From the NCBI GenBank assembly GCA_049115575.1, contig JAGDZU010000004.1, forward strand, positions 252,294 to 316,293: a DNA stretch of 64,000 bases, written 5' to 3'. The first letter of the stretch is position 1, and each line of letters begins with the position of its first letter. Of the stretch, positions 27,372 through 54,221 are shown piece by piece. A model generated the notes under the pieces. It was given only the letters and a program-made list of their open reading frames with translations. It made no database searches and had not been told where the DNA came from. The translations under genes were made by a program, and so were the position numbers. Origin of the DNA: Bacteroidia bacterium (GTDB lineage Bacteria > Bacteroidota > Bacteroidia > NS11-12g > UBA9320).

Positions 27372-27467
27372 GCTTATGCCAAAGTTAAAGAAAAGAGCAC
27401 AGAAGGGAAAGAATATGATCTTTCAAGCTTAAAAACTAAAACGCTCTAAGCACGGAACTCGTTGAAA

Positions 27468-28196
27468 ATGATGATAATTGCAGTTCAAATGAATTCTTCT
27501 GATCACCCACATATTTTTTTCGATCTCGATCACACTTTGTGGGATTTTGAAGCCAATGCAGAGGCAACTCTTCGCGAATTGTATGATTATTACGACATAG
27601 TTAACAGAACAGATAGCTCCGTAGATGTATTCATTCAAACCTATAGCAGAGTTAATAATCGCTATTGGGCACTATACAGAAAGCAGCAAGTTAGCAAAGC
27701 TGACCTTCGTGTTCAACGCTTTACAGACACTTTCGCAGAAGTTGGGATAGAACGAGCAGATATTCCAAAAGGGATTTGGGAGCACTACATAGAAATATGC
27801 CCTACCAAGACCCAATTGATGGCCGGAGCAAAGGAAACGCTTGATTATTTGTCCCAAAACCACAAATTACATTTGATTACCAACGGATTTGAAGAGACAC
27901 AACACAGAAAGCTAAAGAATACCAAGCTTGAACAGTATTTTCAAAGTTTAACGATTTCTGAAGTGGTTGGGTCTCAGAAACCATCGCCCTATATATTTAA
28001 GCAAGCGCTGTTAAATGCAGGTTTAACTGCTGAAGAAAGCACCTATGTTGGTGATAATTTTGAAGCCGATGTTCAAGGGGGCATCAATGCTGGCTGGCAA
28101 GTTTTCTGGCTAAATGAGACTAATTCTCATCCCGATTTCACACACCCCAAACTGGTGCGAATTAAAAAACTCTTGGAACTCAAAAAGCACTTCTAG
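27468..28196 (+). CDS. HAD-superfamily hydrolase (YjjG-like noncanonical pyrimidine nucleotidase subfamily IA)
   Basis: HAD motif I is FFDLDHTLWD and motif III/IV is VGDNFEADVQG. The ATG at 27468 is preferred over the upstream TTG of the ORF track. Confidence 0.7.
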   Translation: MMIIAVQMNSSDHPHIFFDLDHTLWDFEANAEATLRELYDYYDIVNRTDSSVDVFIQTYSRVNNRYWALYRKQQVSKADLRVQRFTDTFAEVGIERADIPKGIWEHYIEICPTKTQLMAGAKETLDYLSQNHKLHLITNGFEETQHRKLKNTKLEQYFQSLTISEVVGSQKPSPYIFKQALLNAGLTAEESTYVGDNFEADVQGGINAGWQVFWLNETNSHPDFTHPKLVRIKKLLELKKHF

Positions 28197-28218
28197 CTTT
28201 TATATATCTTCGCCCACA

Positions 28219-28992
28219 GTGAAGAATACCAATCGCGTTGACACCGAGCTTTTTGAACAAGAACACTATCTTGGAAAGCCCGCTGAGTTCAATGATAAAA
28301 TCATTGGTAGAAGATTAAATCTTCTACATCAAGTAGAAAATTTCTGTGGTACAGATTTAAACTGTTTAGAAATTGGCTGTGGCATTGGAGCTACCGCGGT
28401 ACAACTGTCATCTGATTTTAAAGAAGTGGTTGGTATAGAGTATTACGAAGGCCATGGTAAAGAATTCAACGATCTCAAAACCAAAATGCAGGCCGACAAT
28501 GTCTCTTTTCAGGTTCACAATATAGAAGAACAACCAACTGAATTTAAATACGACAGACTGGTGAGTTTCGAGGTTATAGAACATTTGAACTCTGAAGACG
28601 GAGTAATGAACTACGCCAAGAGTTTGAAAGATGAAGGACTTGCAATAATTAGTGTTCCCAACAAATGGTGGGTATTTGAACAACATGGAGCTAGACTACC
28701 TCTATTGCCATGGAATAGAGTGCCCTTCTTTTCATGGTTGCCTAGACCACTTCATGAAAGGTGGGCTTTGGCTCGTATCTATACCAAAAGACGTATACGC
28801 AAATTGCTAGAAAAATCAGGATTTGAAGTCTTAAGCTGCAAATACATAACTGCTCCTATGGATGTTTTACCCGAGGGCTGGCTTAAACAATTACTCACCA
28901 CTACCATATTCAAATCAGACAGTACATCTGTCCCTTTCCTAAGCACATCTATTTTTGTGGTAGCGAGAAAAAAATCAAGAGTTGAGCATTGA
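28219..28992 (+). CDS. Class I SAM-dependent methyltransferase; the start is likely the GTG at 28219, since the ORF-track start overlaps the preceding gene
   Basis: Motif I is [12 protein letters not shown]. The acidic motif II is IEY and motif III is VSFEVIEH. There is no in-frame ATG between the upstream gene's stop and motif I. Confidence 0.6.
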
Positions 28993-30598: not shown

Positions 30599-32092
30599 TT
30601 AAGCTTTTTTGAGCCGGAATCTAATCAATTGCTTATCTATAAATTCATTGAACTCTAAAGAGAATTTGAACCAATAGCACAAGACAAAATAGATGAGACC
30701 AAAACTGCTTGAATACAACAATATATTCACTATAGTGTTAGGTGTTCTTGGCAGAACAGCCCAGATAAAGAACAATAGCCCAGCCAGCACAATATTGTAC
30801 AAGTTCTTCATCCTGAATGGCTGCATATTGAAAGCTCGTTTTATATATATGAGTTTTAGAATATTGTAAACCAAAATAGAGGCTATGGTGGCCATACTGC
30901 TTCCTTCTATGCCGTAGCGCGGAATGAGTATGAGGTTTAAGCCAATATTTAATACTACAGCAACAGATAAAAAACCCAACAGATATGGATATTTCTTAGA
31001 CATAGACAATATCTGATTGTTTACCCCTGAAGCCATATCTATTATTTTGGCTACACAGAGCATCCAAACCACGTTAATGCCCAAACGGTATTCATCTCCT
31101 CTAGGCATTAGATCAAATACATCTTTAATAATGAGCCAAAATGCGAGAAATATTCCCAGGGAAACTAACACCGATACAGCTGAAGATTGTTTGTAAATCC
31201 TTTTAATTCCCTCCTGATCGTTGTCTTTCCAATACTGCGAAATGATAGGTACTGAGATAGTGCTTATTAAAGTAAAAGGAACCGCAATGGCATTCGCAAT
31301 AAAAAGACTCCAGGCATACAGCCCGTTTTGATATGTTCCTACCATAGTGGTCACCATCAAGATGTCAATTTGATTTGCCAATGCTCCTCCAATGCCGCTT
31401 AGTACACTAAATCCTGCAAAAGCCACCATGGGTTTAAAATTTGGGTCTGCTTTTAAACTCGACCATGAAAACTTTGGCCTGAACTTATCTTGTGAGTTCA
31501 TGTAGTACAAAAACACAAGCGCAAGTACCAGATGATAAGCAAAGAGCAAAACAATAAGCTGATCAAACTTTATATAATCATAAAAGTAGGCTACGACGAA
31601 AGCGGGCAATGCAAACTTCAATAGCTGAATCAACAGCGAAGGGATTGCAATTCTTCCCTGTATAGCTGCATAGTTTCTTGCCAACCTCACATAGGGCAAA
31701 ATAGCCGCTATTCCAATGAGCACATAAACGGAAATGCGTGAAACACCCGATTTGCTTTCATAATAGTCAGCTATCCTAGCCTTGAAAAGTAAAAATATGG
31801 CAAGAAATACAAGGATATTCAATGTAACTGTGAGGTAAACCAAGCCATAGAATCGCTGTTTTGAAGCTTGATTATCTTTATACTGTGGATAGTATCTGGT
31901 TAGCACATAGCCAAATCCAAATACCAGAAATGGGGTAAAAAAAGTAGCCGTCTGCAGAACAAATTGTACCTCACCATACTGTTCTACGGTAAGCATATAG
32001 GGATAAATGAACAAATTGTTCAACACTCCCATCCCCAATCCTATATAGGTAGCAATTGCCGCTTTAAAGCTTTGCCTAGCCACTAATCCCAT
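30599..32092 (-). CDS. Polysaccharide biosynthesis protein / oligosaccharide flippase (MOP superfamily, Wzx-like)
   Basis: It has about 12-14 TM helices and is 497 aa. It is divergent from the glycoconjugate operon. Confidence 0.7.
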   Translation of the reverse strand: MGLVARQSFKAAIATYIGLGMGVLNNLFIYPYMLTVEQYGEVQFVLQTATFFTPFLVFGFGYVLTRYYPQYKDNQASKQRFYGLVYLTVTLNILVFLAIFLLFKARIADYYESKSGVSRISVYVLIGIAAILPYVRLARNYAAIQGRIAIPSLLIQLLKFALPAFVVAYFYDYIKFDQLIVLLFAYHLVLALVFLYYMNSQDKFRPKFSWSSLKADPNFKPMVAFAGFSVLSGIGGALANQIDILMVTTMVGTYQNGLYAWSLFIANAIAVPFTLISTISVPIISQYWKDNDQEGIKRIYKQSSAVSVLVSLGIFLAFWLIIKDVFDLMPRGDEYRLGINVVWMLCVAKIIDMASGVNNQILSMSKKYPYLLGFLSVAVVLNIGLNLILIPRYGIEGSSMATIASILVYNILKLIYIKRAFNMQPFRMKNLYNIVLAGLLFFIWAVLPRTPNTIVNILLYSSSFGLIYFVLCYWFKFSLEFNEFIDKQLIRFRLKKA

Positions 32093-32185
32093 TCCTACAA
32101 AAAAACGCAGGAAATCAATACCTTATTGGATTAGTTATCCAATAATACAAGCCTTATGTCTAAGCCTCCAATCTGCCAAAATGTT

Positions 32186-32193
32186 TACATTTG
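32186..32193 (+). promoter_or_regulatory. Candidate Bacteroidota sigma-A -7 element (TAcaTTTG) upstream of the sqdB-like operon
   Basis: It matches TAnnTTTG and sits about 20 bp upstream of the preferred ATG at 32214. Confidence 0.25.
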
Positions 32194-32213
32194 TACATCA
32201 TAAAAAGAAATAC

Positions 32214-33404
32214 ATGAAAATACTAATATTAGGAGGTGATGGATTCTGTGGATGGCCTACTGCATTGCATCTTTCTCAAAACGGATATGAGGTGGTAATT
32301 ATCGATAATTTATCGCGTAGAAACATTGATAATGAGCTTGGAATACAGTCTTTAACTCCTATTGCAACTATACAAGACAGGTTAGAAGCTTGGGAAGAAG
32401 TGAGCGGAAAAAAAATCAAGTTTTACAATTTTGATATTGCTTTGGAATATGACCGCTTAGTGGATGTGCTTCTAAAGGAAAAACCAGATAGTTTAGTTCA
32501 TTTCGCTGAGCAAAGAGCGGCTCCATATTCTATGAAGTCTAGCTGGCATAAGCGCTATACTGTGAATAACAATATAAATGCTACCAACAATGTACTCTGT
32601 GCCGTTCTTGACTCTGAATTAGATATTCATATTGTTCATCTTGGGACTATGGGTGTATACGGCTACAGTAGCACTGGAGCAAAAATTCCAGAAGGATACC
32701 TAGATATTTTCTTTAAAGATGATACTGGAAAGACTCACGAAAGCGAGATTCTTTATCCTGCAAATCCTGGGAGTGTTTACCATACCACTAAAACATTAGA
32801 TCAACTCTTATTTTATTACTACAATAAGAATGACAAGATTAGAGTTACAGACCTTCACCAAGGTATAGTTTGGGGAACCAATACGGAAGAAACCAAAATA
32901 GACGAACGTCTTATTAATCGTTTTGACTACGATGGTGACTACGGCACTGTGTTGAATAGGTTCTTAATGCAAGCAGCTATTGGTTATCCGCTAACTGTAT
33001 ATGGAACAGGAGGGCAAACAAGAGCTTTTATTCATATACAAGATACAGTTAAATGTGTTAGAATTGCTATTGAAAATCCACCTGAAAAAGGAGAGAGAGT
33101 TAAGATATTCAATCAAACCACTGAAACACATAAGGTAATTGACTTAGCTAATAAGATTAATGAAATCACCGGTGTTGAAATCAAGACTATTGAAAATCCG
33201 AGAAACGAGGCTATCGAAAACGATTTAATAGTTGAAAATAAGAACTTTCTTGGTTTAGGTCTTAATCCAATCAAGCTTTCAGAAGGTCTATTGGAAGAAG
33301 TCACAGCAATTGCTAAGAAATACGCAGACCGCTGCGATCCAAAATATATTGCACCTCGATCTTTTTGGGTAAAAAAGAACAAGGAGTATGCCTCAAAGGG
33401 ATAA
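32214..33404 (+). CDS. sqdB: UDP-sulfoquinovose synthase-like NAD-dependent epimerase/dehydratase (SQD1/SqdB/Agl3 family)
   Basis: The N-terminal Rossmann segment ILILGGDGFCGWPTALHLSQNGYEVVIIDNLSRR and the downstream ...LGIQSLTPIATIQDRL are close to plant/cyanobacterial SQD1. A YHTTK (Y-H-x2-K) catalytic motif is present, and the His after the Tyr is SQD1-specific. Length and domain order match. Confidence 0.75.
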   Translation: MKILILGGDGFCGWPTALHLSQNGYEVVIIDNLSRRNIDNELGIQSLTPIATIQDRLEAWEEVSGKKIKFYNFDIALEYDRLVDVLLKEKPDSLVHFAEQRAAPYSMKSSWHKRYTVNNNINATNNVLCAVLDSELDIHIVHLGTMGVYGYSSTGAKIPEGYLDIFFKDDTGKTHESEILYPANPGSVYHTTKTLDQLLFYYYNKNDKIRVTDLHQGIVWGTNTEETKIDERLINRFDYDGDYGTVLNRFLMQAAIGYPLTVYGTGGQTRAFIHIQDTVKCVRIAIENPPEKGERVKIFNQTTETHKVIDLANKINEITGVEIKTIENPRNEAIENDLIVENKNFLGLGLNPIKLSEGLLEEVTAIAKKYADRCDPKYIAPRSFWVKKNKEYASKG

Positions 33405-34410
33405 ACCCTTAGTAAGTATAATTGGATCTGTTTACAATGGGGAACAGCATCTAGCTGAAACCCTTGAAAGTCTCAGAGCACAAGACTACTCAAATTTTGA
33501 AGTCATTATTGTAAATGACGCTTCTACAGATGACAGCCTATCTATCATAGAGAGCTATTGCCTAGAAGATGAGCGATTTAGGTTCATAACCAATACCAAC
33601 AACGAAGGTCCAGCAGCCAAAAACAAAGCTATAGAAGCAGCTAAAGGAGAGTTCATTGCCGTTTTCGATGCGGATGATATCTATGCCAAAAGTCGTATAA
33701 GTGAGCAAGTTAAGTTTATGGAAAAGAGACCTGAGCTACTTGCCAGCTCTTGTCAAGCCATCAAATTTGAAGGACAGCAAGGTCTTTTGTGGAATTACCT
33801 TTCACCCTCCTTGCTAAAAGCCTTTGCCTTTATCAATATGCCGCTTGTTCACCCCTCCATTATTTATAGGGCAAGCGTATTCAAAGAATTGAACTTGAGA
33901 TATGATGCACCTATTCGCTTTGTTCAAGATTATGATTTGGTTTTCAGATTATCTCAGCAAGGAGCTATAGCAAATCAGGCTAAGGTACTCATGCTATACA
34001 GAAGACATGACACTCAAGTCACTTCAGGGGAAAAAATGTCTTATGTTCAAAGGGCATATGATCATCTATATCAACTAAAATCAAGGCAATTAGGACAACT
34101 CATAAACGATTTGAACAAAAAACAAATCGATTTGTTTATCGCATTCTGTTTCAATGACTTAGAAAGTGTAGACATAACAGAAATGGAAAATTTTCTGCTT
34201 AAAATAGTAAGGGCTTATCCAGATTCTAACAGTATGGGCAAAGTGGTAGCTCAGCACCGTTTGCATCAACTTAAAAAAAGTGGAATAGCTCATCTGTTTA
34301 AACACAGCATGAATAGTCCAATTTTAAGTTTAAGAGATGTATTTGCCTACCTGAATAAGGAGGTGATGAAAAAGCTATTTATGCACACTAAAGCCAAACG
34401 CTATATTTAA
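33388..34410 (+). CDS. Family 2 glycosyltransferase
   Basis: The GT-A N-terminus is VSIIGSVYNGEQHL...VIIVNDASTDDS, with a DAD motif at FDADD. Confidence 0.75.
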   Translation: MPQRDKPLVSIIGSVYNGEQHLAETLESLRAQDYSNFEVIIVNDASTDDSLSIIESYCLEDERFRFITNTNNEGPAAKNKAIEAAKGEFIAVFDADDIYAKSRISEQVKFMEKRPELLASSCQAIKFEGQQGLLWNYLSPSLLKAFAFINMPLVHPSIIYRASVFKELNLRYDAPIRFVQDYDLVFRLSQQGAIANQAKVLMLYRRHDTQVTSGEKMSYVQRAYDHLYQLKSRQLGQLINDLNKKQIDLFIAFCFNDLESVDITEMENFLLKIVRAYPDSNSMGKVVAQHRLHQLKKSGIAHLFKHSMNSPILSLRDVFAYLNKEVMKKLFMHTKAKRYI

Positions 34411-34452
34411 GCTTGATAATTCTCCTTATTTATTGAGCCTCAGTAGATAAAT

Positions 34453-35349
34453 TTGCATGTGCCTAAAGTTTTAAGCATTGCCATTTGCACCTACAACAGA
34501 CCTGAGCTGCTTCAGCACTGTCTGGATGCTATTTACCCGCAGCTAACAGATGAGGTGGAGCTAATTGTGGTTGACAATGGAACCACTAAAGTTGAAGAAC
34601 TGTGTAATGCATTTGAAAATCTCACTTACGTCACAGAAGACCATACTGGTTTATCATTTGCTAGAAATACTGCAATCCGCCAAAGCTCAGGACAATACTT
34701 ACTATACCTAGATGATGATGCCAAAGCTGATTCAAACTTTGTACAGATTGCACTTGATAGTTGCAAAACGGGCTACAAAGTCTTTGGAGGAGTCTATCTC
34801 CCTTGGTATCACTACGGTCAACCAAAATGGTTTAAAGATGAATATGCTTCCAATAGAATGAAATATACTAGCACAACTGCGCTGAGTAAGGGCGAATACT
34901 TGAGTGGTGGTGTCATGTGCATTAAGAAAGAAATTTTTAAACAAATTGGAGAATTCAAAACAGATATAGGTATGCGCGGTAGCATAGTTGGCTATGGAGA
35001 AGAATCCGAATTGCAAGATAGGATGAGGGCACAGAACATAAAACTAATATATGAGCCTACATTGCTCATTTCACATGTTGTTGCACCTTATAAACTTGAA
35101 GTTAAGTGGTTTCTTGATTCAGCCTTTAATAGAGGTATTGATATGGCCAAATACAGAAAGGGTGATCCTACTTGGGCTATAATTAGAGAATCAATGATTG
35201 CGTTTACTCTTTTATGTAAGGATGCCTTAGTGAATGGCATTAAATACTTACTCAACAAAAGTTACTACAAAGAGAATTGGCACATAGATACATACCGAAA
35301 GTTTTACAAGCGAAAGGGATATATTTACCAGATAATAAATGATCAGTAA
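34453..35349 (+). CDS. Family 2 glycosyltransferase
   Basis: The GT-A N-terminus is LSIAICTYNRPELL...LIVVDNGT, with a DxD at LDDDA. Confidence 0.75.
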   Translation: MHVPKVLSIAICTYNRPELLQHCLDAIYPQLTDEVELIVVDNGTTKVEELCNAFENLTYVTEDHTGLSFARNTAIRQSSGQYLLYLDDDAKADSNFVQIALDSCKTGYKVFGGVYLPWYHYGQPKWFKDEYASNRMKYTSTTALSKGEYLSGGVMCIKKEIFKQIGEFKTDIGMRGSIVGYGEESELQDRMRAQNIKLIYEPTLLISHVVAPYKLEVKWFLDSAFNRGIDMAKYRKGDPTWAIIRESMIAFTLLCKDALVNGIKYLLNKSYYKENWHIDTYRKFYKRKGYIYQIINDQ

Positions 35350-35974
35350 TAAACAGACCATACTCATATTAGCTCCTCATACAGATGATGGAGAATTTGG
35401 TTGCGGAGCGTCAATTCACAAATGGATAACAGAGGGTAAAACCGTCTATTACGCCACATTTTCTGCATGCAAACAATCTGTGCTTCCTCAGTTTCCTGAA
35501 GATATATTAATCACTGAAGTCAAAGCTGCAACTGCGGAACTTGGTTTACCGCAGGAGAATTTAATCCTCTATGATTATGCGGTAAGAACTTTTAATTATC
35601 ACAGGCAAGCAATACTTGATGACTTAATAAAACTCCGAGAACAGATTAAACCAGACCTAGTTTTAATGCCGTCTCCGAATGATATTCACCAAGACCATAA
35701 GACGATTATGGAGGAAGGGCTTCGTGCCTTTAAATTCACCAGTATTCTCTGCTATGAGATGCCTTGGAATAATCTAAATTTCAATACTAGCTGCTTTAGT
35801 ATATTGGATGAGGAACATGTGGAAGTTAAACTAAATGCACTTCGCAAATATGAATCACAGGCACACAGACCTTATGCAGACGAAACATTTATCAAAGGTT
35901 TGGCAAGAGCAAGGGGTGTGCAGATTAATTCACATTATGCAGAAGTCTTTGAGGTCTTGAGATGGATCATCTAA
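35339..35974 (+). CDS. PIG-L/LmbE-family N-acetylglucosaminyl deacetylase
   Basis: The zinc-binding signature is AHTDDGEFGCG ... HQDH. It is about 210 aa and overlaps its neighbours on both sides. Confidence 0.75.
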   Translation: MISNKQTILILAPHTDDGEFGCGASIHKWITEGKTVYYATFSACKQSVLPQFPEDILITEVKAATAELGLPQENLILYDYAVRTFNYHRQAILDDLIKLREQIKPDLVLMPSPNDIHQDHKTIMEEGLRAFKFTSILCYEMPWNNLNFNTSCFSILDEEHVEVKLNALRKYESQAHRPYADETFIKGLARARGVQINSHYAEVFEVLRWII

Positions 35975-37002
35975 AGAACACTCATATCTTAGTTACTGGA
36001 GGTGGAGCACCTGGAGCAGTAGGCATTATTAAAGCCCTTAATCGAGCTGGTTATCACAATATCAGTTGCTCAGATGTAAACAAAAAAGTAGCGGGAAGCA
36101 TACTTGCCAATGATTCTTTTCAATTGCCATATGGTACTGATCCAGATTACACAGACATATTATTAAAAGAATGTAAGACAAGAGACATAGATCTTATTTT
36201 ACCTATCACAACCAAAGAGCTTTTGGCGGTGAGTCGCATAAAAAGTAAACTGGCAGATGTAGGTTGTAATACAGTGGTAAGCCCAATTGAAAGCCTGAAA
36301 ATATCAAACGATAAAGGAGCTCTATACACCCATCTAAAAGATTCAGGAATAACAGTACCCAAACACCGAATAGTTCAAAATATTGAGGAGTTTGAAAATG
36401 CGCTTGAAGCATTTGATCAAGGAGAAGCCTTTACATTCAAACCTTGTGTATCTAATGGAAGCAGAGGATTTAGAATTATTGACCCATCAATAGATGAATT
36501 TGATTTATGGTTGAATCAGAAGCCCAACAATGCATATGTTACTAAGGAAGAAGCTCTATCCATCCTTAAAAAGGGGCCTATGCCTCCACTGCTTTTTAGC
36601 GAATATCTAGAGGGCGAAGAATACTCCGTTGATTGTTTAATTCACAAGGGTGAGATAAAACTGATTATACCTCGAAAACGAATCAATATAAATAATGGAA
36701 TTAGTGTAGAAGGGCTCATTGAAAACAACAAAACAGTAATCGATTACTGCACACAAATTCTAGAAAGCCTTGAGTTAGATGGGCCGATAGGAATTCAAGT
36801 GAAGTACAAAGGAAACCAACCCTTGATTTTGGAGATTAATCCAAGATTACAAGGAAGTTCCACTTCTTGCATAGGAGCGGGAATTAATTTACCACAATTA
36901 GCTATAGAAAATGCTTTAGGAAAACAGCCTAATAAAACTCAAAACGATATAAAATGGGGCACTCATTTTGTTCGTCATTATGAAGAGATCTACTATAAAT
37001 GA
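35962..37002 (+). CDS. ATP-grasp-domain ligase (CPSase-L/PylC-like amide-bond-forming enzyme)
   Basis: It has an N-terminal Rossmann-like pre-ATP-grasp segment (ILVTGGGAPGAVGIIKAL) and a central ATP-grasp fold ending in an ...EINPRLQGS-type motif. Confidence 0.7.
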   Translation: MDHLKNTHILVTGGGAPGAVGIIKALNRAGYHNISCSDVNKKVAGSILANDSFQLPYGTDPDYTDILLKECKTRDIDLILPITTKELLAVSRIKSKLADVGCNTVVSPIESLKISNDKGALYTHLKDSGITVPKHRIVQNIEEFENALEAFDQGEAFTFKPCVSNGSRGFRIIDPSIDEFDLWLNQKPNNAYVTKEEALSILKKGPMPPLLFSEYLEGEEYSVDCLIHKGEIKLIIPRKRININNGISVEGLIENNKTVIDYCTQILESLELDGPIGIQVKYKGNQPLILEINPRLQGSSTSCIGAGINLPQLAIENALGKQPNKTQNDIKWGTHFVRHYEEIYYK

Positions 37003-38279
37003 AGAAATTACTCATCATATGCTATTATTGGCCTCCAAGTGGAGGAGCGGGGGTTCAGCGCTGGCTGAAACTCAGTGATTATATAGCTAAAGCGGGAGTT
37101 GAAGTCTTTATCATTCACCCAAAAAGTAGCAAAGCCAGTTACTTGACTCTTGATGAGAGTTTGGTTCATGAAATCAATCCCAATATTCATACTATGGAAA
37201 CCAATTCCTTTGAACCTTTGAATTGGTATAAAAGAATAGTAGGTAAGAAAAATGTACCAACGGCAGGAATGTCTAATGTAAATCCCAAAAGCAAATTACA
37301 GTCACTTGCTTTGAGGTTAAGAAGCACCTTGTTCATTCCAGATCCAAGGAAGTATTGGTTAAAACATGCCTATAAAGCAGCTGTGGAACTCATCAGCAAG
37401 CATGAGATTTCACATGTTATCACCTCTTCCCCACCTCATTCTGCTCAACTCATTGGCTTGCGCTTAAGACAAAATCTAAACATACATTGGATTGCCGATC
37501 TTCGCGATTTATGGACTGGCATCTACTACTACGACCTGCTTCAGCACACAACAAGATCAAGAGCTAAAGATGCAAAACTGGAATTAGAAGTATTGCAGAG
37601 AGCAGACCATATTACCACAGTGAGCCCTTTGTTTAAAGATGAATTTAAGCAAATCGCTCAATGTGATTCTTCTAAAATTAGTGTGATTCCAAATGGGTTC
37701 GACCCCAAGGATTTCAACTCATTTAATTACCTTAAAGAGGTTGAATTCACTATAACCTATACAGGTAGTATCAGTTCACAATACAATATTTCTCCATTCA
37801 TAGAGGCCTTAAAGAGTTTCAATGAAGCAGGTAAAAATTTCAAATTGAGATTTGTTGGCTCCGTAGACCCTGGCATAAAGGAGCGTTTTGCTAAGGAAGG
37901 GATGTCAACATCTGTTGAGTTTACAGGCTATGTTCAGCACGATGAGTCCATTTCTTACTTAGAAGATTCTTATGCATTACTCCTAATTGGCCCGTTGAAT
38001 GAAGATCAAAACGAAGGCAGTGTTCCTGCCAAGCTTTTTGAATATCTCGCTGCCAAGAGACATATCATTTATATAGGTAAAACAGATGGATTTGTAGCTC
38101 AAATACTTCGCGATTGTGCAGCGGGTAGCACATTTGAAAACGCAAAGGATTTACTGCTTCACTTACAGGAATTGTCTTCTAAACATGAAGCAAATAACAA
38201 TCCTCAGATTGAATCAAAAGGGATAGATACTTATTCCAGAATAAATCAGGCCGAAGAGTTCCTCAAATTATTAGCTTAA
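36999..38279 (+). CDS. Glycosyltransferase (GT-B fold, GT4-like)
   Basis: It has an N-terminal GT-B acceptor domain with the WPPSGGAGVQ motif and a C-terminal donor-binding domain with the E..E motif. It overlaps the ATP-grasp stop. Confidence 0.55.
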   Translation: MKKLLIICYYWPPSGGAGVQRWLKLSDYIAKAGVEVFIIHPKSSKASYLTLDESLVHEINPNIHTMETNSFEPLNWYKRIVGKKNVPTAGMSNVNPKSKLQSLALRLRSTLFIPDPRKYWLKHAYKAAVELISKHEISHVITSSPPHSAQLIGLRLRQNLNIHWIADLRDLWTGIYYYDLLQHTTRSRAKDAKLELEVLQRADHITTVSPLFKDEFKQIAQCDSSKISVIPNGFDPKDFNSFNYLKEVEFTITYTGSISSQYNISPFIEALKSFNEAGKNFKLRFVGSVDPGIKERFAKEGMSTSVEFTGYVQHDESISYLEDSYALLLIGPLNEDQNEGSVPAKLFEYLAAKRHIIYIGKTDGFVAQILRDCAAGSTFENAKDLLLHLQELSSKHEANNNPQIESKGIDTYSRINQAEEFLKLLA

Positions 38280-38349
38280 TCCAAGCTCACTTTATGCCTA
38301 AAACAAGCGGTAATTTCATATTATTGAAAGCCAATAGCGTTTCAAATTC

Positions 38350-40767
38350 ATGAAGGAACTTTTTCAACAATATAAAATACATCTAATCATTCTTTTAGCC
38401 ATCTGTGCTATTTCATTTGCCTATGTACCAGAGGTGCTAGATGGGAAGATCTTAGCACAAGGTGACATCACACAATACAAAGGGGCTGCCAAAGAAATTA
38501 TTGACTATAGAGACAATGGTGAACGTATTCTTTGGACCAATTCTCAATTCTCGGGTATGCCAACCTACCAAATTAGTGGAGTAGCTGGCGAGAGTCCAAT
38601 GAAGTATTTGAGAATTCCTAAGAAGCCTCTCACCTGGGAAAAGTTATTTCTTCTCCTCTTCTGTTCCTATCTCATGTTTCTTTCGTTCAGAATAAAACCC
38701 TGGATAGCCTTGGTTGGTGCTGTGGGCATGGCCTTTGTTACTGGAAACATGACAGTTATAGAAGCTGGGCATAACACCCAAGCATTAGCCATAGCATATG
38801 CACCACTTATTATAGGAGGGGTCCAGTATTTGTTCCGGAGAAAGTGGCTTGTCGGTTTTAATATGGTAGCCATAGGCATGGCACTTCAACTGGTTGTGAA
38901 CCACGTTCAAATAAGTTATTATACAGGAATCATCATAGGTATTTGGATGGTATTCCAGTTAGTATGGCATATACAGAAGAAAGAGATTAAGCATTTCTTA
39001 ATGGTTGCTGGAATTGCGCTTGCGGGGGTAGTAATAGCTGTAGGTGCAAACTCCTTGAATTTAATGCTTACTAAGGAGTATTTAGACCACACAATTAGAG
39101 GGAAATCCGAAATTACTATAGACCAATCAGCTCAAGAAAAAGCGGAAGCTCCAAGTGATGGTTTGGCACGCTGGTACGCTTTCCAATGGAGTAATGGCTG
39201 GGATGATGTAGCCGCTATGTTTATTCCCAATTATGCCGGTGGAGGTGCCAAAACAGGCTTGTACTATGGTGCGCTTCCATTTACATCCGGACCTCAATAC
39301 ATGGGCATGGCCATTATATTTCTTTGCATTCTCGGATTTATTGGTGTAAAAGATCGAAGTAAATGGTGGATCCTAACAGCTGTTTTATTGGCGGTTGCCT
39401 TGTCTATGGGTAAGAACAATTTTGTCTGGCTCAACGACTTCTTCTTTGAAAATGTGCCGTTCTATAATAAGTTTAGAGCCCCTACAATGGCACTGACCAT
39501 AGTTCAATTATGTCTGCCAATAATGGCTGTATTTGCCTTAAATGATTTTATAGAGAATCAGGACAAAGAAGCTCAATGGAAAGCTTTAAAATTTACTGGA
39601 ATTGGAGTAGGAGCCTTTTTAATCATACTTACCTTTTTCAGCGGAAGCTTTAACGATTTTAAAACACCGAGAACTATAGACCCAGTAAGTGGTCAAGTTC
39701 TAGAAGATCGAGATCAACAAACCGCAGATCGCTATAAAGTACCAGTGGATCAATTCTGGGCTCAAGTGGTGCCTCAAAGAATAGAGCTCATGAAGAAAGA
39801 TGGCTATAGAAGCATCTTCTTTGCTGCAGCTATCTTTGTTCTATTGTGGTTGTATTATAAAGGCAATCTTAACAGCAAACTCACCATAGCCTTAGTAGGC
39901 GTCTTTATTCTAATTGACTTCTGGGGGGTAGACAAGCGATACCTTGCCAGCGAAAACTTTAAGACTCCCAGACAAATTGAAGGAGAGGTATCTCCTTCTA
40001 GGGCTGACATGGCTATAATGCAAGACAAGTCTTATTACAGAGTCTTGGATCTTACAGAGAGTACCATGAGAAGTTCTAGAGCATCTCATTTCCATAAGTC
40101 AATAGGTGGCTACAATGCTGCAAAACTCAGAAGGTATCAGGAATTATTTGATTGGTATATCTATGACGAATTGAATAAGGGTAAAATCATGGAGAGTAAT
40201 TTATTAAACATGCTTAACATGAAATATGTAACCTACCCGGTAAAAGACAAAGAGATGCAATATGCTGTGAATCCTAATGCCAACGGGAACGCCTGGTTTG
40301 TGAGTAATATTAAACAGGTTAAAGATGCCAACGAAGCCATAGTTGCTATGGCAGACTTAAACACCAAATCAACAGCATTGATTGAACAGAAATTTTCAAA
40401 TCAAATCAGTGCGACATCATTTGATGTTGACAGCGCAGCAAACATTGTTCTGAAAACCTACCACCCAGAAGAACTGGTTTATGAATCAAATAGTTCAAAA
40501 GACGGATTTATTGTTTTCTCTGAGATATACTACCCAGACGGTTGGAACGCTTATGTAGATAATCAAAAGGTAGATCATGCACAGGTTGACTTTGTTCTAA
40601 GAGGACTATTTGTAAATGCCGGTAAACATGAAATCAAGTTTAAGTTTGAACCTACAACTTACACCAAGGGAAGAACTATATCCCTGGCATCTAGTGGTAT
40701 TATTTATCTTGTACTAGCAGCTTCCTTATTTATTGGAATAAGGAAAGAGCTCAAGAGCAAAGCATGA
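38350..40767 (+). CDS. YfhO-family polytopic membrane protein (putative glycosyl/glycolipid transferase)
   Basis: It is 805 aa with more than 12 TM helices in the N-terminal two-thirds and a C-terminal extracytoplasmic domain, matching YfhO family architecture. It overlaps the holB start. Confidence 0.75.
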   Translation: MKELFQQYKIHLIILLAICAISFAYVPEVLDGKILAQGDITQYKGAAKEIIDYRDNGERILWTNSQFSGMPTYQISGVAGESPMKYLRIPKKPLTWEKLFLLLFCSYLMFLSFRIKPWIALVGAVGMAFVTGNMTVIEAGHNTQALAIAYAPLIIGGVQYLFRRKWLVGFNMVAIGMALQLVVNHVQISYYTGIIIGIWMVFQLVWHIQKKEIKHFLMVAGIALAGVVIAVGANSLNLMLTKEYLDHTIRGKSEITIDQSAQEKAEAPSDGLARWYAFQWSNGWDDVAAMFIPNYAGGGAKTGLYYGALPFTSGPQYMGMAIIFLCILGFIGVKDRSKWWILTAVLLAVALSMGKNNFVWLNDFFFENVPFYNKFRAPTMALTIVQLCLPIMAVFALNDFIENQDKEAQWKALKFTGIGVGAFLIILTFFSGSFNDFKTPRTIDPVSGQVLEDRDQQTADRYKVPVDQFWAQVVPQRIELMKKDGYRSIFFAAAIFVLLWLYYKGNLNSKLTIALVGVFILIDFWGVDKRYLASENFKTPRQIEGEVSPSRADMAIMQDKSYYRVLDLTESTMRSSRASHFHKSIGGYNAAKLRRYQELFDWYIYDELNKGKIMESNLLNMLNMKYVTYPVKDKEMQYAVNPNANGNAWFVSNIKQVKDANEAIVAMADLNTKSTALIEQKFSNQISATSFDVDSAANIVLKTYHPEELVYESNSSKDGFIVFSEIYYPDGWNAYVDNQKVDHAQVDFVLRGLFVNAGKHEIKFKFEPTTYTKGRTISLASSGIIYLVLAASLFIGIRKELKSKA

Positions 40768-41876
40768 GATTCGCAGATATACCAGGGCAAGAGGAGATAA
40801 AAGCTAAATTGGTTAGCAGCATTAAAGAGGAGAGAATTCCTCATGCTCAATTATTTCTCGGCCCCGAAGGAAGTCACAATCTCAGTTTAGCAATTGCATG
40901 CATACAAATGATGTATTGCTCTCAACCTTTAGAAGATGATTCCTGTGGAAGCTGTAGCTCCTGCTCCAAAATCAGCAAGCATATGCATCCAGATGTGCAT
41001 TACAGCTACCCAACAGCAGGTGCAAAGCAAATAAGCACTACCTACATTAATGAGTGGAGGCAAATGTTGTCTGAACATCCTTTAATGAATGCAAGTGACT
41101 GGATGGCAAAAATTGCCAAAGACGAGAACAAAACACCAAATATCACAAGAGAAGAAAGTAGAGATATACTTTCCAAACTCAGTCTTAAACCATTTGAGGG
41201 AGAAGCCAAAGCTCTTATCATTTGGATGCCTGAGTATCTGGATAAGATTGGAAACAGCTTACTCAAGATTATTGAAGAACCACCTCAACGCACTTTTTTC
41301 ATACTAGTAGCTCATCAGTTCGATGCTATTTTACCTACTGTTAGCAGCAGAACTCAACTGGTGAAAATTGGTACTTATCAGAATGAAGAGCTAGTAGGTC
41401 ACTTAAGAGAACGCTATGATTTGGAACAAGCCAAAGCTGAGAACATAGCATTTCTAGCTGATGGTAATATGAGGGAAGCAGTAATGATGGTTGAAGAGGT
41501 AGACGACAATTATTCTGAACTTTTCAGAAAAATGATGTTGGCCTGCTATCAAAATGATTTGAGCACAGTAAGCAAGTTTACAGATGAATTAGCTCGTTTA
41601 GGACGCAATCAAATACAGCTTTATCTCCAAAATGGTTTGAAGATTCTTAGAGAAACTTTGTTGTATAAAAGCATTGATGATTACGAAATAAAATTTGTAG
41701 GTGAATACAAAGATTTCATTCGAAACTTTTCAAGCACTATGAATGCAAAGCTGATAGAAGAAAGCTATCGATCCATCAATGAAGTCATCTATCATATTGG
41801 CAGAAATGCTAATGCTAAAATCTCACTCTTTAATCTATCTTTGGCCCTCAGACATAATTTCATCAGAAAAAGATAA
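40764..41876 (+). CDS. holB: DNA polymerase III subunit delta-prime
   Basis: It is AAA+-like with a degenerate Walker A (LFLGPEGSHN), a zinc module CGSCSSCSKISKHMHPDVHY, and a SRT sensor motif. Confidence 0.8.
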   Translation: MRFADIPGQEEIKAKLVSSIKEERIPHAQLFLGPEGSHNLSLAIACIQMMYCSQPLEDDSCGSCSSCSKISKHMHPDVHYSYPTAGAKQISTTYINEWRQMLSEHPLMNASDWMAKIAKDENKTPNITREESRDILSKLSLKPFEGEAKALIIWMPEYLDKIGNSLLKIIEEPPQRTFFILVAHQFDAILPTVSSRTQLVKIGTYQNEELVGHLRERYDLEQAKAENIAFLADGNMREAVMMVEEVDDNYSELFRKMMLACYQNDLSTVSKFTDELARLGRNQIQLYLQNGLKILRETLLYKSIDDYEIKFVGEYKDFIRNFSSTMNAKLIEESYRSINEVIYHIGRNANAKISLFNLSLALRHNFIRKR

Positions 41877-41890
41877 GTCAAAGAGAACTA

Positions 41891-43201
41891 ATGAGTTGCG
41901 GAAGTTGCGGAAAGAATAATGGGACACATAGTCCAGGTTGTGGTCAGAATGGTGACTGCAGCACTGGTAGTTGCAATAAACTCAATGTATACAATTGGTT
42001 GTCTGACATGATCCTCCCAGAGGATTATGTTCCTTTCAATATAGTTGAAGTAAGGTTTAAAGGGAGTAAGAAACTGTTCTTCAGAAATCACGACAACCTG
42101 GAACTGTTTACAGGAGATAAAGTTGTTGTTGAATCTGATTTTGGATACGATGTAGGAACCATTTCACTCAGCGGTGAATTGGTAAAACTTCAGTTGAAAA
42201 AATACGGAGTAGATGAAAACAGTGCTGAAATGCGTAAAATTCTGCGCATAGCAGGAGAAAAAGAACTAGAGAAATACCAAGAAATCAAAGATCGTGAGCC
42301 TAAAACATTGGAAAGAGCAAGAACCATTGCTATGAAAATGAATCTCAAGATGAAGATTAGCGATATGGAATTTCAAGGGGATGGGAAGAAAGTCACTTTC
42401 TATTATACCTCAGAGGGTCGCGTTGATTTTAGAGAGTTGATTAAGAGATATGCTTCTGAATTCAGATCAAGAATAGAAATGAGGCAAGTGAGTTACCGAG
42501 AAGAAGCTTCTAGATTAGGTGGTATTGGTAGTTGTGGAAGGGAGTTATGTTGCAGCACCTGGCTTACTGATTATAAAGTAGTAAGTATGAGTGCAGCAAA
42601 GACTCAAAACCTATCTATTAACATGCTAAAGCTTTCCGGGCAGTGTGGTAGGTTGAAATGTTGTCTCAATTATGAATTGGAGTTGTATACCGAAGCTTTG
42701 GCAGAATTTCCAAGAGATGATGTGCGACTTAAGACCGAAGCAGGCGAGGCATCTCTCAAGAAAATAGATATTCTAAAAGGAACTCTATGGTATTCATATG
42801 AAAAGAGTTTTGATTGGATTCCAATTAAGCTTGACAGAGTTAATGAGATTATTGCCAAGAACAAGAAAGGCGAAAAACCTGCTACTCTTAGCGACACTGC
42901 TAAAGGTGCCGAGATTCTCAATAAATCACTTGAATACAAAGATGATTTGCTAGAATCTTCTGACCTTACTCGAATGGACCATAAGAAGGACCATGGCCGA
43001 TCTAAGGGTAGAGGTAGAAGAAAAGGTGCACCGTCTAAACGCAGAAGACCGCAACAGACCAAGAAGACAGAAGGCGCTGATGGTAATCCTCAAGCTAATA
43101 GAGGCGGTAACAAATCAAATCGAAGTAATAAAAATCGAAACCAGAACAGGAATCGAAATAGAAATCAAAACAAGGGCAACCAAAACAAGCCCAAGGACTA
43201 A
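41891..43201 (+). CDS. PSP1-domain protein (YaaT/RicT-like) with a Cys-rich N-terminus and a basic N/R/Q-rich low-complexity C-terminal tail
   Basis: The PSP1 C-terminal conserved region is GSCGRELCCSTWL ... GQCGRLKCC. It lies immediately downstream of holB, as in Firmicutes. Confidence 0.75.
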   Translation: MSCGSCGKNNGTHSPGCGQNGDCSTGSCNKLNVYNWLSDMILPEDYVPFNIVEVRFKGSKKLFFRNHDNLELFTGDKVVVESDFGYDVGTISLSGELVKLQLKKYGVDENSAEMRKILRIAGEKELEKYQEIKDREPKTLERARTIAMKMNLKMKISDMEFQGDGKKVTFYYTSEGRVDFRELIKRYASEFRSRIEMRQVSYREEASRLGGIGSCGRELCCSTWLTDYKVVSMSAAKTQNLSINMLKLSGQCGRLKCCLNYELELYTEALAEFPRDDVRLKTEAGEASLKKIDILKGTLWYSYEKSFDWIPIKLDRVNEIIAKNKKGEKPATLSDTAKGAEILNKSLEYKDDLLESSDLTRMDHKKDHGRSKGRGRRKGAPSKRRRPQQTKKTEGADGNPQANRGGNKSNRSNKNRNQNRNRNRNQNKGNQNKPKD

Positions 43202-47811: not shown

Positions 47812-49044
47812 ATGCATACCTGGATAAACATAGATCAGCAATCAGATTTTAGCATTTACAATCTTCCCTATGGCGTATTTATGCGCGACGGACAGGCAAC
47901 ACCTGGTGTTGCAATTGGTGACTCCATCATAGATCTTAAAGCCTGTGCCATGCTAGGCATATTTGATCATATAGAATTCGACAAAGCCGTTTTTGACAGT
48001 TCAGTACTGAATGATTTTATTTCTACTGGTAAAAAGGTGTGGTCTGAAGTAAGAAAGACTTTACAAGAGCATTTGACCAATGAAAACTCCAAGTTGTTTG
48101 AATTCAAATCAAAACTTTTAGTTGATCGTTTACAGGCTGAAATGCGTCTTCCAATTCAAATTGGTGATTATACAGACTTTTATAGCAGTATAGAGCACGC
48201 TACCAATGTAGGCAAGATGTTTAGACCGGATAATCCATTGCTTCCAAACTGGAAACATATACCTGTGGGATATCACGGAAGAAGCAGTTCCATAGTAATT
48301 AGCGGCACAGACATTAAAAGACCACATGGACAAACAATGGCTCCAGATGCGAACAGTCCTTCTTATGGGCCAAGTAAAAGAATGGATCTTGAGTTGGAAA
48401 TGGGTTATGTGATTGGCAGACCAACTAAACTTGGCGAGCAAATAGATGTTAATACGGCTGAAGATTTCATTTTCGGGAAAGTAATATTCAACGATTGGAG
48501 TGCAAGAGACATTCAAAAGTGGGAATATGTTCCCTTAGGGCCTTTTTTAGGAAAGAATTTTGGATCGAGTATGTCTGCATGGATAGTAACCATGGAAGCA
48601 TTAGAACCTTTCAGATGTGAAAGCATTGCTCAAGAACCAGAGGTTCTGCCATACTTGCAATTCAGTGGGAATAAGAACTACGATATAAATCTTGAAGTAG
48701 ATCTTATAACAGAGGAAGGTAATGCCACAACCATTGCTAAAAGCAACTTCAAGTATATGTATTGGAACATGGCACAACAACTTGCTCACCACACTGTAAA
48801 TGGTTGTAATGTTAACGTTGGTGATTTAATGGCCAGTGGCACTATAAGCGGGCGAGATAAAGGCAGCTACGGAAGCATGCTGGAATTGAGTTGGGGTGGA
48901 AAAGAACAAGTTCAACTCAATGATGGCTCAAGCAGAACATTTATAAATGATGGCGACAGCATAGACATTCGCGCTTGGTGTGAAAAAGATGGAAAAAGAG
49001 TGGGATTTGGTAATTGTTTAGGGAAGATTTTACCTGCTGATTAA
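47812..49044 (+). CDS. Fumarylacetoacetase (FAH)
   Basis: It has the FAH N-terminal domain (NLPYGVF) and the C-terminal catalytic domain with conserved metal-binding acidic residues. The length is typical at 410 aa. Confidence 0.85.
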   Translation: MHTWINIDQQSDFSIYNLPYGVFMRDGQATPGVAIGDSIIDLKACAMLGIFDHIEFDKAVFDSSVLNDFISTGKKVWSEVRKTLQEHLTNENSKLFEFKSKLLVDRLQAEMRLPIQIGDYTDFYSSIEHATNVGKMFRPDNPLLPNWKHIPVGYHGRSSSIVISGTDIKRPHGQTMAPDANSPSYGPSKRMDLELEMGYVIGRPTKLGEQIDVNTAEDFIFGKVIFNDWSARDIQKWEYVPLGPFLGKNFGSSMSAWIVTMEALEPFRCESIAQEPEVLPYLQFSGNKNYDINLEVDLITEEGNATTIAKSNFKYMYWNMAQQLAHHTVNGCNVNVGDLMASGTISGRDKGSYGSMLELSWGGKEQVQLNDGSSRTFINDGDSIDIRAWCEKDGKRVGFGNCLGKILPAD

Positions 49045-52722: not shown

Positions 52723-52743
52723 AATTCTTTTTTTAATTATTAA

Positions 52744-54207: not shown

Positions 54208-54221
54208 TTTTGATTCTCTTT

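Follow-up and report, generated by a model that had tools for sequence, protein, structure and literature searches.

Sulfoquinovose, the 'plant sulfolipid' sugar, has been treated as a product of phototrophs, which carry it in sulfoquinovosyl diacylglycerol (SQDG), and of one archaeal N-glycan. That N-glycan belongs to Sulfolobus acidocaldarius, where Agl3 supplies the uridine diphosphate (UDP)-sulfoquinovose (PMC4245038, PMC4388408), and it is the only established non-lipid use of the sugar. Reviews of the global sulfoquinovose cycle assume that heterotrophic bacteria only consume sulfoquinovose (PMC13436972). The subject here is a 64,000-nt stretch of DNA (the window) from the metagenome-assembled genome (MAG) of a Bacteroidia bacterium (contig JAGDZU010000004.1, positions 252,294 to 316,293), in which a UDP-sulfoquinovose synthase of the SqdB/SQD1 type is predicted within a glycan locus at 30599-40767. 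Its setting suggests that non-photosynthetic bacteria put the same sugar into exported glycans.

The other systems that bear on this locus are the general O-glycosylation clusters of Bacteroidota. The 27-kb cluster of Tannerella forsythia and those of Bacteroides (lfg in B. fragilis) have wzx at one end, conserved glycosyltransferase (Gtf) genes at the other, and a variable middle with nonulosonic-acid genes, methyltransferases and an asparagine-synthase-like amidotransferase (PMC6120980). The O-oligosaccharyltransferase of Bacteroidota has been missing, a question now more than 15 years old, and YfhO, which is phylum-wide, often essential, and reported as essential in Bacteroidales, has been predicted in silico to fill the role (bioRxiv 10.64898/2026.07.27.740950, a July 2026 preprint). 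The window and its relatives show the same layout: a wzx end, a conserved glycosyltransferase end and a species-variable middle devoted to special sugars. On the best reading the locus is a modular envelope-glycan locus of the Bacteroidota O-glycosylation type, not one assembled around SqdB. A preliminary description of this DNA had taken the operon to be built around SqdB and had recognised no described pathway in the gene combination. The first view fails because the scaffold genes recur without sqdB, which sits with GT2a in a hypervariable slot, and the second gives way to the resemblance to the O-glycosylation clusters.

An open reading frame (ORF) map of the window recovered all eight genes of that description at the expected positions and strands, and Pfam and NCBIfam agreed with the family labels given there. 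They are listed here with the two genes that follow and one sequence motif:

30599-32092, minus strand: Wzx-type flippase (Pfam Polysacc_synt PF01943, E 1.6e-11)
32186-32193, plus strand: promoter-type motif TACATTTG, matching the Bacteroidota -7 consensus TAnnTTTG
ORF 32181/32214-33404, plus strand: SqdB/SQD1-type short-chain dehydrogenase/reductase (SDR) (PDB 1i24, NCBIfam NF041015); variable cassette
33388-34410, plus strand: GT2a (Pfam Glycos_transf_2, E 1e-32); variable cassette
34453-35349, plus strand: GT2b (Pfam Glycos_transf_2, E 3.6e-19); semi-conserved part
35339-35974, plus strand: PIG-L/LmbE zinc N-deacetylase (Pfam PIG-L, E 9e-17); conserved module
35962-37002, plus strand: ATP-grasp carboxylate-amine ligase (Pfam ATPgrasp_Ter, ATP-grasp_3, PylC-like_N); conserved module
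36999-38279, plus strand: divergent GT4-like glycosyltransferase of the GT-B type (Pfam Glyco_transf_4 and Glycos_transf_1, E 1e-12 to 1e-7); conserved module
38350-40767, plus strand: YfhO-family GT-C membrane glycosyltransferase (Pfam YfhO PF09586)
40764-41876, plus strand: holB, DNA polymerase III delta' (Pfam/NCBIfam); housekeeping context, not a pathway member
41891-43201, plus strand: ricT/PSP1 (Pfam/NCBIfam); housekeeping context, not a pathway member

The seven genes from sqdB to yfhO are closely packed, with four overlaps (sqdB/GT2a 17 nt, GT2b/PIG-L 11 nt, PIG-L/ATP-grasp 13 nt, ATP-grasp/GT4-like 4 nt), a spacing of 42 nt between GT2a and GT2b, and the 70-nt gap before yfhO that had been noted earlier. 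Five overlapping junctions of 4-17 nt had been counted; the fifth, of 4 nt, joins the yfhO stop to the holB start and lies outside the interval, and the co-oriented string continues past 40767 into holB and then ricT/PSP1. The products of sqdB, the ATP-grasp gene and yfhO match, at 100% identity, proteins called in the NCBI entry 'MAG: Bacteroidia bacterium', and these are therefore real genes. The wzx gene, which encodes 497 aa with about 12 hydrophobic segments, is divergent from the operon and stands directly upstream of adk-obg.

The first enzyme of the string is, by homology, a genuine UDP-sulfoquinovose synthase of the SqdB/SQD1 type and not a generic epimerase. It aligns with Arabidopsis SQD1 (PDB 1i24) over its full length, residues 6-398, at 47% identity (343.7 bits, E 1.4e-101), compared with 56.5 bits for the best non-SQD1 SDR structure in the PDB. 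With NF041015, the NCBIfam model for UDP-sulfoquinovose synthase, it scores 353.8 bits; the GalE and RmlB models reach 61.6 and 46. The wide separation from generic epimerases that the preliminary description had proposed as a check is thus present in both comparisons (344 bits against at most 57 for other SDRs, and 354 against 62 for GalE), and so is the alignment of the catalytic T/Y/H/K residues: Thr145, Tyr182, His183 and Lys186 of SQD1 are all retained. Alanine mutants of Agl3 at His95, Arg101 and Met145 are inactive (PMC4388408), and the corresponding residues are kept in the window protein (H96, R101, M146). Across the 120 closest homologues H96, R101, T145, M146, Y149, Y189, H190 and K193 are invariant. 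The protein is also 71-74% identical to a large set of cyanobacterial SqdB sequences.

The place of this enzyme in the locus emerges from comparison with relatives. An ATP-grasp profile scan of 185,579 species genomes gave 357 relatives, and the window proteins were mapped onto the best 80 loci, cited below by number. One metagenomic contig (L008) carries the seven-gene set with wzx, adk-obg, holB-ricT, recR and uppP in identical order; a sister species is suggested by housekeeping proteins 85-94% identical to those of the window and by a nucleotide identity of about 77%. The two SqdB proteins are 98.5% identical, with 53% of conserved codons identical, and synonymous divergence is uniform over 14 genes (sqdB and 13 neighbours). 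Because sqdB has diverged at synonymous sites as far as its neighbours have, and its product remains 98.5% identical, the gene must have been inherited vertically under very strong purifying selection. A recent transfer of sqdB between the two genomes was rejected, as its synonymous divergence equals that of the housekeeping neighbours.

Conservation of the seven genes as a unit, as had been proposed, holds for L008, and breaks down in about 20 related genomes that have PIG-L and ATP-grasp genes and no sqdB. PIG-L stands beside ATP-grasp in 20 distinct loci, L008 included, from uncultured Bacteroidia or 'Sphingobacteriales' MAGs; the exception to strict adjacency is L062, where a GT4-like gene stands between the two. 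PIG-L identity to the window protein is 75-89% in 16 of the 20 listed loci and 56-64% in three distant ones. PIG-L is more conserved than RecR, RicT and HolB of the same genomes, and far more than its coupled ATP-grasp partner, whose orthologues are 44-68% identical. YfhO is also found in 13 distinct loci, usually with holB and ricT and often with recR and uppP (bacA), and it recurs without sqdB wherever related contigs extend far enough. The GT4-like gene is present in about half of the related loci at 49-78% identity, and GT2b in five. Eight loci carry GT4-like orthologues, and seven of these (L010, L011, L014, L015, L017, L026 and L075) lack sqdB. Gene order is fluid, with at least four permutations (for example GT4-YfhO-holB-PIGL-ATPgrasp-ricT, GT4-PIGL-ATPgrasp-YfhO-holB and YfhO-PIGL-ATPgrasp-holB). 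Of the related loci mapped, L008 alone shares sqdB and GT2a with the window.

The 4-6 kb between wzx and the conserved genes differs in every lineage whose contig reaches wzx:

L010 slot: methyltransferase, cytidine monophosphate (CMP)-sugar cytidylyltransferase, Gfo/Idh oxidoreductase, Ldh_2 dehydrogenase, GH57-like protein
L014 slot: HMGL-like protein, cytidylyltransferase, HAD hydrolase, FkbM methyltransferase
L017 slot: methyltransferase, two GT1 genes, asparagine-synthase-type amidotransferase
L075 slot (5266-9247, between wzx and PIG-L): GT2, two sulfotransferases

The sulfotransferases of L075 represent a different route to sulfur-based anionic decoration at the same slot. The flippase gene lies beside adk in L008, L010 and L075, and L013, L014 and L017 have a wzx homologue at that end too, on contigs that stop there or yielded no adk match. 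Across relatives Wzx identity ranges from 26 to 89%, compared with 71-89% for the neighbouring adk product, and it tracks cassette replacement, the pattern expected of a flippase that co-varies with its glycan. Since slot contents and Wzx identity vary over steady neighbours, sqdB and GT2a are one interchangeable cassette in a conserved scaffold. Three layers can be told apart: the GT4-like/PIG-L/ATP-grasp module; YfhO tied to holB-ricT together with Wzx tied to adk-obg; and the hypervariable slot between them. The anchoring of YfhO and Wzx to these housekeeping genes also speaks against the earlier view of the operon as built around SqdB.

On the export side, the window YfhO belongs to the phylum-wide YfhO family. 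Its Pfam score is 43.9 bits, above the gathering score of 28.5, and full-length homologues at 35-40% identity occur in Flavobacteriales, Bacteroidales, Cytophagales and Saprospiraceae. Prediction gives about ten N-terminal transmembrane segments, a soluble domain and a C-terminal transmembrane segment; in the homologue alignment D39 and E49, just after the first transmembrane segment, are invariant. Searches of the PDB with the single sequence and with a profile gave nothing useful, and only fold comparison gave the GT-C placement: the AlphaFold2 model (predicted local distance difference test, pLDDT, 86.3) has as its top PDB folds AftD, ArnT, STT3, Pmt4, PglB and AftA, GT-C enzymes that use polyprenyl-linked donors. 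Solubility is predicted for GT2a, GT2b, the GT4-like protein, PIG-L and ATP-grasp alike; this agrees with assembly in the cytoplasm on a lipid carrier and not with the Firmicutes CsbB/YfhO scheme, for which a membrane-anchored GT2 is required. Pfam and NCBIfam annotation of the ten locus genes and twenty flanking ORFs (19-29 kb and 45-59.5 kb) revealed no Wzy, chain-length regulator, initiating phosphoglycosyltransferase or ABC exporter, and the window gave no tblastn match to the L001 proteins Wzy, WecG and Bac_transf. The lack of these functions in the window favours a short oligosaccharide over a polymer.

Within the cassette, GT2a is a soluble inverting GT-A enzyme and a candidate sulfoquinovosyltransferase. 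It has no transmembrane segment and carries a DxD-type motif (FDADD), and its start lies within the end of sqdB. Among the related loci mapped its orthologue is found only in L008, the sole other core-bearing locus with sqdB. The metagenome contigs yielded no close relative, only generic GT2 N-terminal domains at no more than 45% identity, none adjoining sqdB, so that the link between GT2a and SqdB rests on two genomes. GT2b, also without a transmembrane segment, has orthologues at 51-74% identity in L008, L010, L014, L015 and L026, four of which lack sqdB.

Homologues beyond these relatives provide a second line of argument. In a neighbour-joining tree of the 120 best SqdB matches, built without bootstrap, the window protein belongs to a non-cyanobacterial group of 12 members, separate from the 108 cyanobacterial sequences. 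The contexts sampled from this group (Yeosuana sp. MJ-SS3, Urechidicola croceus and three metagenomic lineages) are all polysaccharide loci that hold Wzx and Wzy, WecG and Bac_transf, or Wzm and Wzt, and in some cases sulfotransferases and CysN as well. The Flavobacteriaceae and metagenomic SqdB homologues in them are 72-74% identical to that of the window. In four of the five contexts a gene of about 225 aa for 3'-phosphoadenosine-5'-phosphosulfate (PAPS) reductase and then an SDR gene of 304-310 aa stand immediately 5' of sqdB:

L001, 8333-11191: PAPS reductase, SDR, sqdB
L002, 8319-11170: PAPS reductase, SDR, sqdB
L003, 8231-11170: PAPS reductase, SDR, sqdB
L006/L007, 8397-11179: PAPS reductase, SDR, sqdB

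The remaining context (L005), an ABC-type (Wzm/Wzt) locus, has no PAPS reductase. The PAPS reductase beside sqdB is a possible local source of sulfite, and the three genes look like a portable unit of sulfite supply and UDP-sulfoquinovose synthesis for glycans. None of the window glycosyltransferases is shared by the other sampled sqdB loci. As judged from gene context, these homologues lend independent support to the idea that SqdB feeds glycans in Bacteroidota. A literature search found sulfoquinovose in protein glycans for archaea only; no report came up of the sugar in polysaccharides or glycoproteins of bacteria, or of sqdB in Bacteroidota. Separately, the cyanobacterium Pleurocapsa sp. 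PCC 7319 (L090, 577-6194) has a SqdB 72% identical to the window's, preceded by a GT4 gene (451 aa), a GT2, a methyltransferase and another GT2, with no obvious sqdX in the locus; it may be a case of glycan-type use of sulfoquinovose in a cyanobacterium.

The conserved module invites a chemical reading of its own. PIG-L has its metal-binding and catalytic motifs AHxDD and HxDH intact, as AHTDD (H14, D16, D17) and HQDH (H117, D119, H120). The AlphaFold2 model of the ATP-grasp protein (pLDDT 89.9) has as its nearest solved folds the uncharacterised 2pn1, then the L-amino-acid ligases RizA and BL00235, then PurK and PurT; among characterised enzymes the modelled fold lies nearest to L-amino-acid ligases. 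For the GT4-like protein, single-sequence and profile searches of the PDB gave nothing useful, with no match at E<0.01. The gene between PIG-L and ATP-grasp in L062 is a full-length remote homologue of it (hhalign probability 99.1%), and the three genes therefore behave as a unit; that locus also holds another GT1-domain protein and a HAD hydrolase, and YfhO and wzx are not nearby. A 403-aa ORF in L043 considered for the GT4-like gene was rejected (hhalign probability 8%). HAD-family hydrolase genes lie near the PIG-L/ATP-grasp pair in distant loci (L043, 11700-12440; L062, 11025-11618), and in the window (27462-28992) and L008 such a gene is paired with a methyltransferase gene just past obg-adk. 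The recurring HAD could be a phosphatase step of the conserved module, or a coincidence.

A GT4 N-acetylglucosamine (GlcNAc)-transferase followed by a PIG-L deacetylase recurs in the mycothiol, bacillithiol, glycosylphosphatidylinositol (GPI) and aminoglycoside pathways, and in the mycothiol and bacillithiol pathways a ligase then acylates the freed amine. By analogy, the same logic of deacetylation and re-acylation may be inferred here, with ATP-grasp forming the amide; it concerns the conserved module and not the sulfosugar. A literature search for PIG-L and ATP-grasp clusters returned nothing relevant. This unit of three enzymes is uncharacterised, and the chemistry predicted for it is clear and can be tested.

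The scheme that best accommodates these results, and that is given slightly better than an even chance, is a predicted pathway in which a lipid-linked oligosaccharide with lineage-specific sulfoquinovose would be flipped by Wzx and transferred by YfhO. The sulfosugar glycoconjugate of the preliminary description survives in it as the best reading, with the amendment that SqdB is a lineage-specific cassette in a YfhO/Wzx locus of known architectural type. SqdB would turn UDP-glucose plus sulfite into UDP-sulfoquinovose, with the sulfite coming from elsewhere in the genome. GT2a, translationally coupled to sqdB, would add sulfoquinovose to an oligosaccharide linked to undecaprenyl-(pyro)phosphate, probably in beta linkage because it is an inverting GT2. 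GT2b and the GT4-like enzyme would build the conserved part of the oligosaccharide: the GT4-like enzyme would add an N-acetylhexosamine, PIG-L would deacetylate it, and ATP-grasp would re-acylate the amine, plausibly with an amino acid. Wzx would flip the finished lipid-linked glycan and YfhO would transfer it in the periplasm, the likeliest acceptor being Ser/Thr of envelope proteins, with a lipid or polysaccharide as the alternative. Sulfoquinovose would then be a lineage-specific anionic outer decoration, in the slot that L075 fills with sulfotransferases. The UDP-sulfoquinovose step stands on strong homology; the GT2a, core-building, and flip and transfer steps are drawn from linkage, co-variation and fold. 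A fuller version, in which an envelope-protein O-glycan carries both sulfoquinovose and ATP-grasp-acylated glucosamine and species-specific glycan genes are joined to the O-oligosaccharyltransferase YfhO, is put forward tentatively, as possible but on balance doubtful.

Several points weigh against this scheme. At the level of the synthase, the 353.8 bits of SqdB fall below the equivalog cut-off of 575 for NF041015, a model presumably tuned to archaeal Agl3-type sequences, and the NCBI name for the protein is 'epimerase/dehydratase family protein' only. The role of GT2a as a sulfoquinovosyltransferase rests on co-occurrence in two genomes, and that of YfhO as an O-oligosaccharyltransferase is an in silico prediction. 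The host is an uncultured MAG whose glycan product, acceptor and enzyme activities are predicted from sequence. Searches of the 64-kb window by tblastn for PAPS reductase, CysN, sulfotransferase, WecG, Wzy and phosphoglycosyltransferase were negative. The O-glycans of Bacteroidota are not known to contain sulfoquinovose or acylated glucosamine. The weak point is whether the module has as its substrate the exported glycan, as assumed, or a separate glycoside of the cytoplasm. Relatives often have the PIG-L/ATP-grasp pair inserted between holB and ricT; the pair has no YfhO nearby in L043 and L062, and its linkage to the glycan genes may be synteny inertia. Moreover, ATP-grasp homologues at 43-47% identity occur in about 55 Chitinophagaceae loci (within L022-L089) without glycan genes, a second genomic context for the family; the neighbours there are UbiD-like, MR/MLE enolase-superfamily, TraB/GumN, DUF2141, DUF6089 and FKBP proteins, with no PIG-L nearby.

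These last observations lead to the main rival explanation, a composite locus in which sqdB, GT2a, possibly GT2b, Wzx and YfhO would serve an exported glycan, and the GT4-like, PIG-L and ATP-grasp enzymes would make a separate cytoplasmic glucosaminide (for instance a thiol resembling mycothiol or bacillithiol, or a compatible solute) and have no more than the operon in common with the glycan genes. The trio is soluble throughout; in L062 it is accompanied by a HAD phosphatase without YfhO or wzx nearby, and in L043 PIG-L and ATP-grasp adjoin adk and a HAD gene. The conservation of PIG-L (75-89% in most loci, 56-64% in three) is housekeeping-like and far above that of the glycosyltransferases, and the Chitinophagaceae homologues sit in non-glycan contexts. 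The succession of GT4, PIG-L and ligase is the established logic of MshA/B/C and BshA/B/C. Yet no BshA, MshA, BshC or MshC model is matched, with no BshA or MshA match for the GT4-like protein, and the BshB1 model reaches 55.1 bits where 182.5 are required. GT2b and/or YfhO directly adjoin the trio in the window, L008, L010, L014, L017 and L075, the junctions in the window overlap by 4-13 nt, and the trio's proximity to YfhO survives at least four rearrangements. All told, the composite locus appears unlikely, though it deserves to be kept in view.

A second possibility is that the scheme is right about export and wrong about the acceptor, YfhO placing the sulfoquinovose-bearing unit on lipopolysaccharide (LPS) or lipid A core, on some other polysaccharide of the envelope, or on a glycolipid. 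Firmicutes YfhO-family enzymes do glycosylate teichoic acids. ArnT and AftD, which have lipid and polysaccharide acceptors, are among the top structural matches of YfhO, and the Flavobacteriaceae SqdB homologues lie in Wzy- or ABC-dependent polysaccharide loci; the window scans, on the other hand, found no Wzy, chain-length regulator or ABC exporter, and the architecture of the locus mirrors that of protein O-glycosylation clusters. The phylum-wide distribution of YfhO and its reported essentiality in Bacteroidales also fit general glycosylation (bioRxiv 10.64898/2026.07.27.740950), and a non-protein acceptor is accordingly rated as distinctly unlikely.

A sulfoquinovosyl glycolipid, whether SQDG-like or with a new headgroup, would require the GT4-like enzyme to be a lipid transferase of the SqdX/SQD2 type. 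SqdX and SQD2 are indeed GT4 enzymes, sqdB shares an operon with the GT4-like gene, and SqdB is 71-74% identical to cyanobacterial enzymes that feed SQDG; but it is GT2a with which sqdB co-varies, while seven loci that lack sqdB retain the GT4-like gene (49-59% identity). The GT4-like protein moreover has no detectable sequence match to any solved GT4 and no BLAST similarity to the GT4 beside sqdB in Pleurocapsa, and a Wzx and a GT-C enzyme would be unnecessary for SQDG. A glycolipid product is rated as very improbable. As the preliminary description had already remarked, no canonical sulfolipid transferase partner is evident. Finally, that the SQD1-like enzyme makes some other UDP-sugar (for example only a 4-keto-5,6-ene or 6-deoxy product) and no sulfosugar is scarcely credible. 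In favour of it are the score below the NCBIfam equivalog cut-off, the negative tblastn search of the window for a sulfite-supplying gene, and a Val where the TMGEYG motif of plants and archaea has Glu. Against it, that same Val is common to all 108 cyanobacterial SqdB among the 120 best matches, none of the residues shown to be essential in Agl3 or SQD1 has been lost, identity to SQD1 is 47% over the full length while no other SDR exceeds 57 bits, and a PAPS reductase lies two genes upstream of sqdB in four of the five Bacteroidota-type contexts sampled.

Some further features of the window concern expression and surroundings. The database protein for SqdB begins at ATG 32214, most likely the true start; TACATTTG sits within the longer ORF, 21 nt 5' of this ATG, and is a putative sqdB promoter motif by consensus match. 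Copies of TAnnTTTG are rarer than expected window-wide (45 found against 76 +/- 8), and many lie just 5' of gene starts, including those of adk (30563, minus strand) and sqdB (32186); example positions are 1467, 6306, 19108, 22246, 26954, 27380, 30563, 32186, 49990 and 57550. The motif scan found no copy in the 70-nt gap that precedes yfhO. Where cassette and core meet, TAAATTTG at 34448-34455 resembled an internal promoter; as it overlaps the GT2b start codon, it is not claimed as one. A scan for sigma-70 promoters and terminators gave no excess over shuffles, and Rfam and tRNA scans of the window were empty.

The surroundings are those of an ordinary Bacteroidota chromosome, with a class II aminoacyl-tRNA synthetase, DHFR, nadC, obg, adk, holB, ricT, recR, uppP, leuS, a SusC/SusD pair and an EPSP-synthase-family gene. 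The SusC/SusD uptake pair belongs to a stretch at 51499-57419 (minus strand) that continues with genes for a BT_2262-like surface Ig-domain protein and a lipid-binding lipoprotein, a small unit resembling a polysaccharide utilization locus and unrelated to the glycan locus. Four ORFs have no Pfam match at E<=1e-5: 21235-22146 (minus strand, 303 aa), 23196-24560 (plus, 454 aa), 24557-26104 (plus, 515 aa) and 49041-49562 (minus, 173 aa).

If the proposed scheme is right, heterotrophic Bacteroidota would be an unrecognised non-photosynthetic source of sulfoquinovose, and GT2a would be the first non-lipid sulfoquinovosyltransferase. SqdB in exported-glycan loci would add as producers the window organism, its sister species and the independent Flavobacteriaceae loci with their own PAPS reductase, and new sulfoquinovose-containing substrates for sulfoquinovosidases would follow. 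The contiguity of yfhO with a locus of wzx, glycosyltransferase genes and a variable cassette also offers independent guilt-by-association support for YfhO as the missing O-oligosaccharyltransferase.

Set beside the known systems, the locus shares features with several. With the SQDG pathway (SQD1/SqdB with SQD2/SqdX, or SqdB with SqdD, a GT8 enzyme, in Rhodobacter) it has in common a synthase of orthologous grade with the same catalytic residues. It differs in having no recognisable lipid sulfoquinovosyltransferase and in the co-variation of sqdB with a GT2 rather than with the GT4-like gene, and its sqdB lies, in a heterotroph, among genes that include those for Wzx and a GT-C enzyme. The mycothiol (MshA/B/C), bacillithiol (BshA/B/C), GPI (PIG-A/PIG-L) and 2-deoxystreptamine (BtrM/BtrD) pathways share the logic of GT4 GlcNAc transfer and PIG-L deacetylation. 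The window co-locates a GT4, a PIG-L with intact zinc site and a ligase, and in that sense works like the thiol pathways without being a member of them: its ligase is an ATP-grasp enzyme rather than one of the BshC or MshC type, and its context is membrane-glycan rather than redox genes.

Teichoic-acid glycosylation by CsbB/GtcA/YfhO in Firmicutes, and the Pgf system of Streptococcus mutans, likewise place a YfhO-family GT-C enzyme beside one or more GT2 genes. Unlike CsbB/GtrB, GT2a and GT2b lack C-terminal transmembrane helices, Wzx takes the place of the small GtrA/GtcA flippase, and the several glycosyltransferases of the window imply an oligosaccharide donor rather than a monosaccharide donor. 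In ArnC/ArnD/ArnT and in Bordetella LgmA/LgmC/LgmB a sugar is deacylated on the cytoplasmic side before periplasmic transfer by a GT-C enzyme; the GT2 of these systems is membrane-anchored and acts on undecaprenyl phosphate, their deacylase is of another family, and they have no ATP-grasp step. The route proposed for the window resembles them in the order of deacylation and transfer, and departs from them in the GT2, the deacylase and the ATP-grasp enzyme. The distinguishing genes of Wzx/Wzy-dependent O-antigen and capsule synthesis (Wzy, a chain-length regulator and an initiating phosphoglycosyltransferase) were absent from the scanned genes.

The two closest counterparts remain those with which this account began. 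Likeness to the Bacteroidota O-glycosylation clusters lies in locus architecture and gene repertoire; in the window yfhO is contiguous with glycosyltransferase and wzx genes, the cassette encodes sulfoquinovose synthesis, and the GT4-like/PIG-L/ATP-grasp module is present. The Agl3 system is archaeal, with a dolichol carrier, the N-oligosaccharyltransferase AglB and a chitobiose core, while that of the window is bacterial, with Wzx and a YfhO-type GT-C enzyme. What the two would have in common is the route itself: UDP-sulfoquinovose feeds a lipid-linked oligosaccharide, and a GT-C enzyme transfers it to surface proteins, as is proposed for the window.

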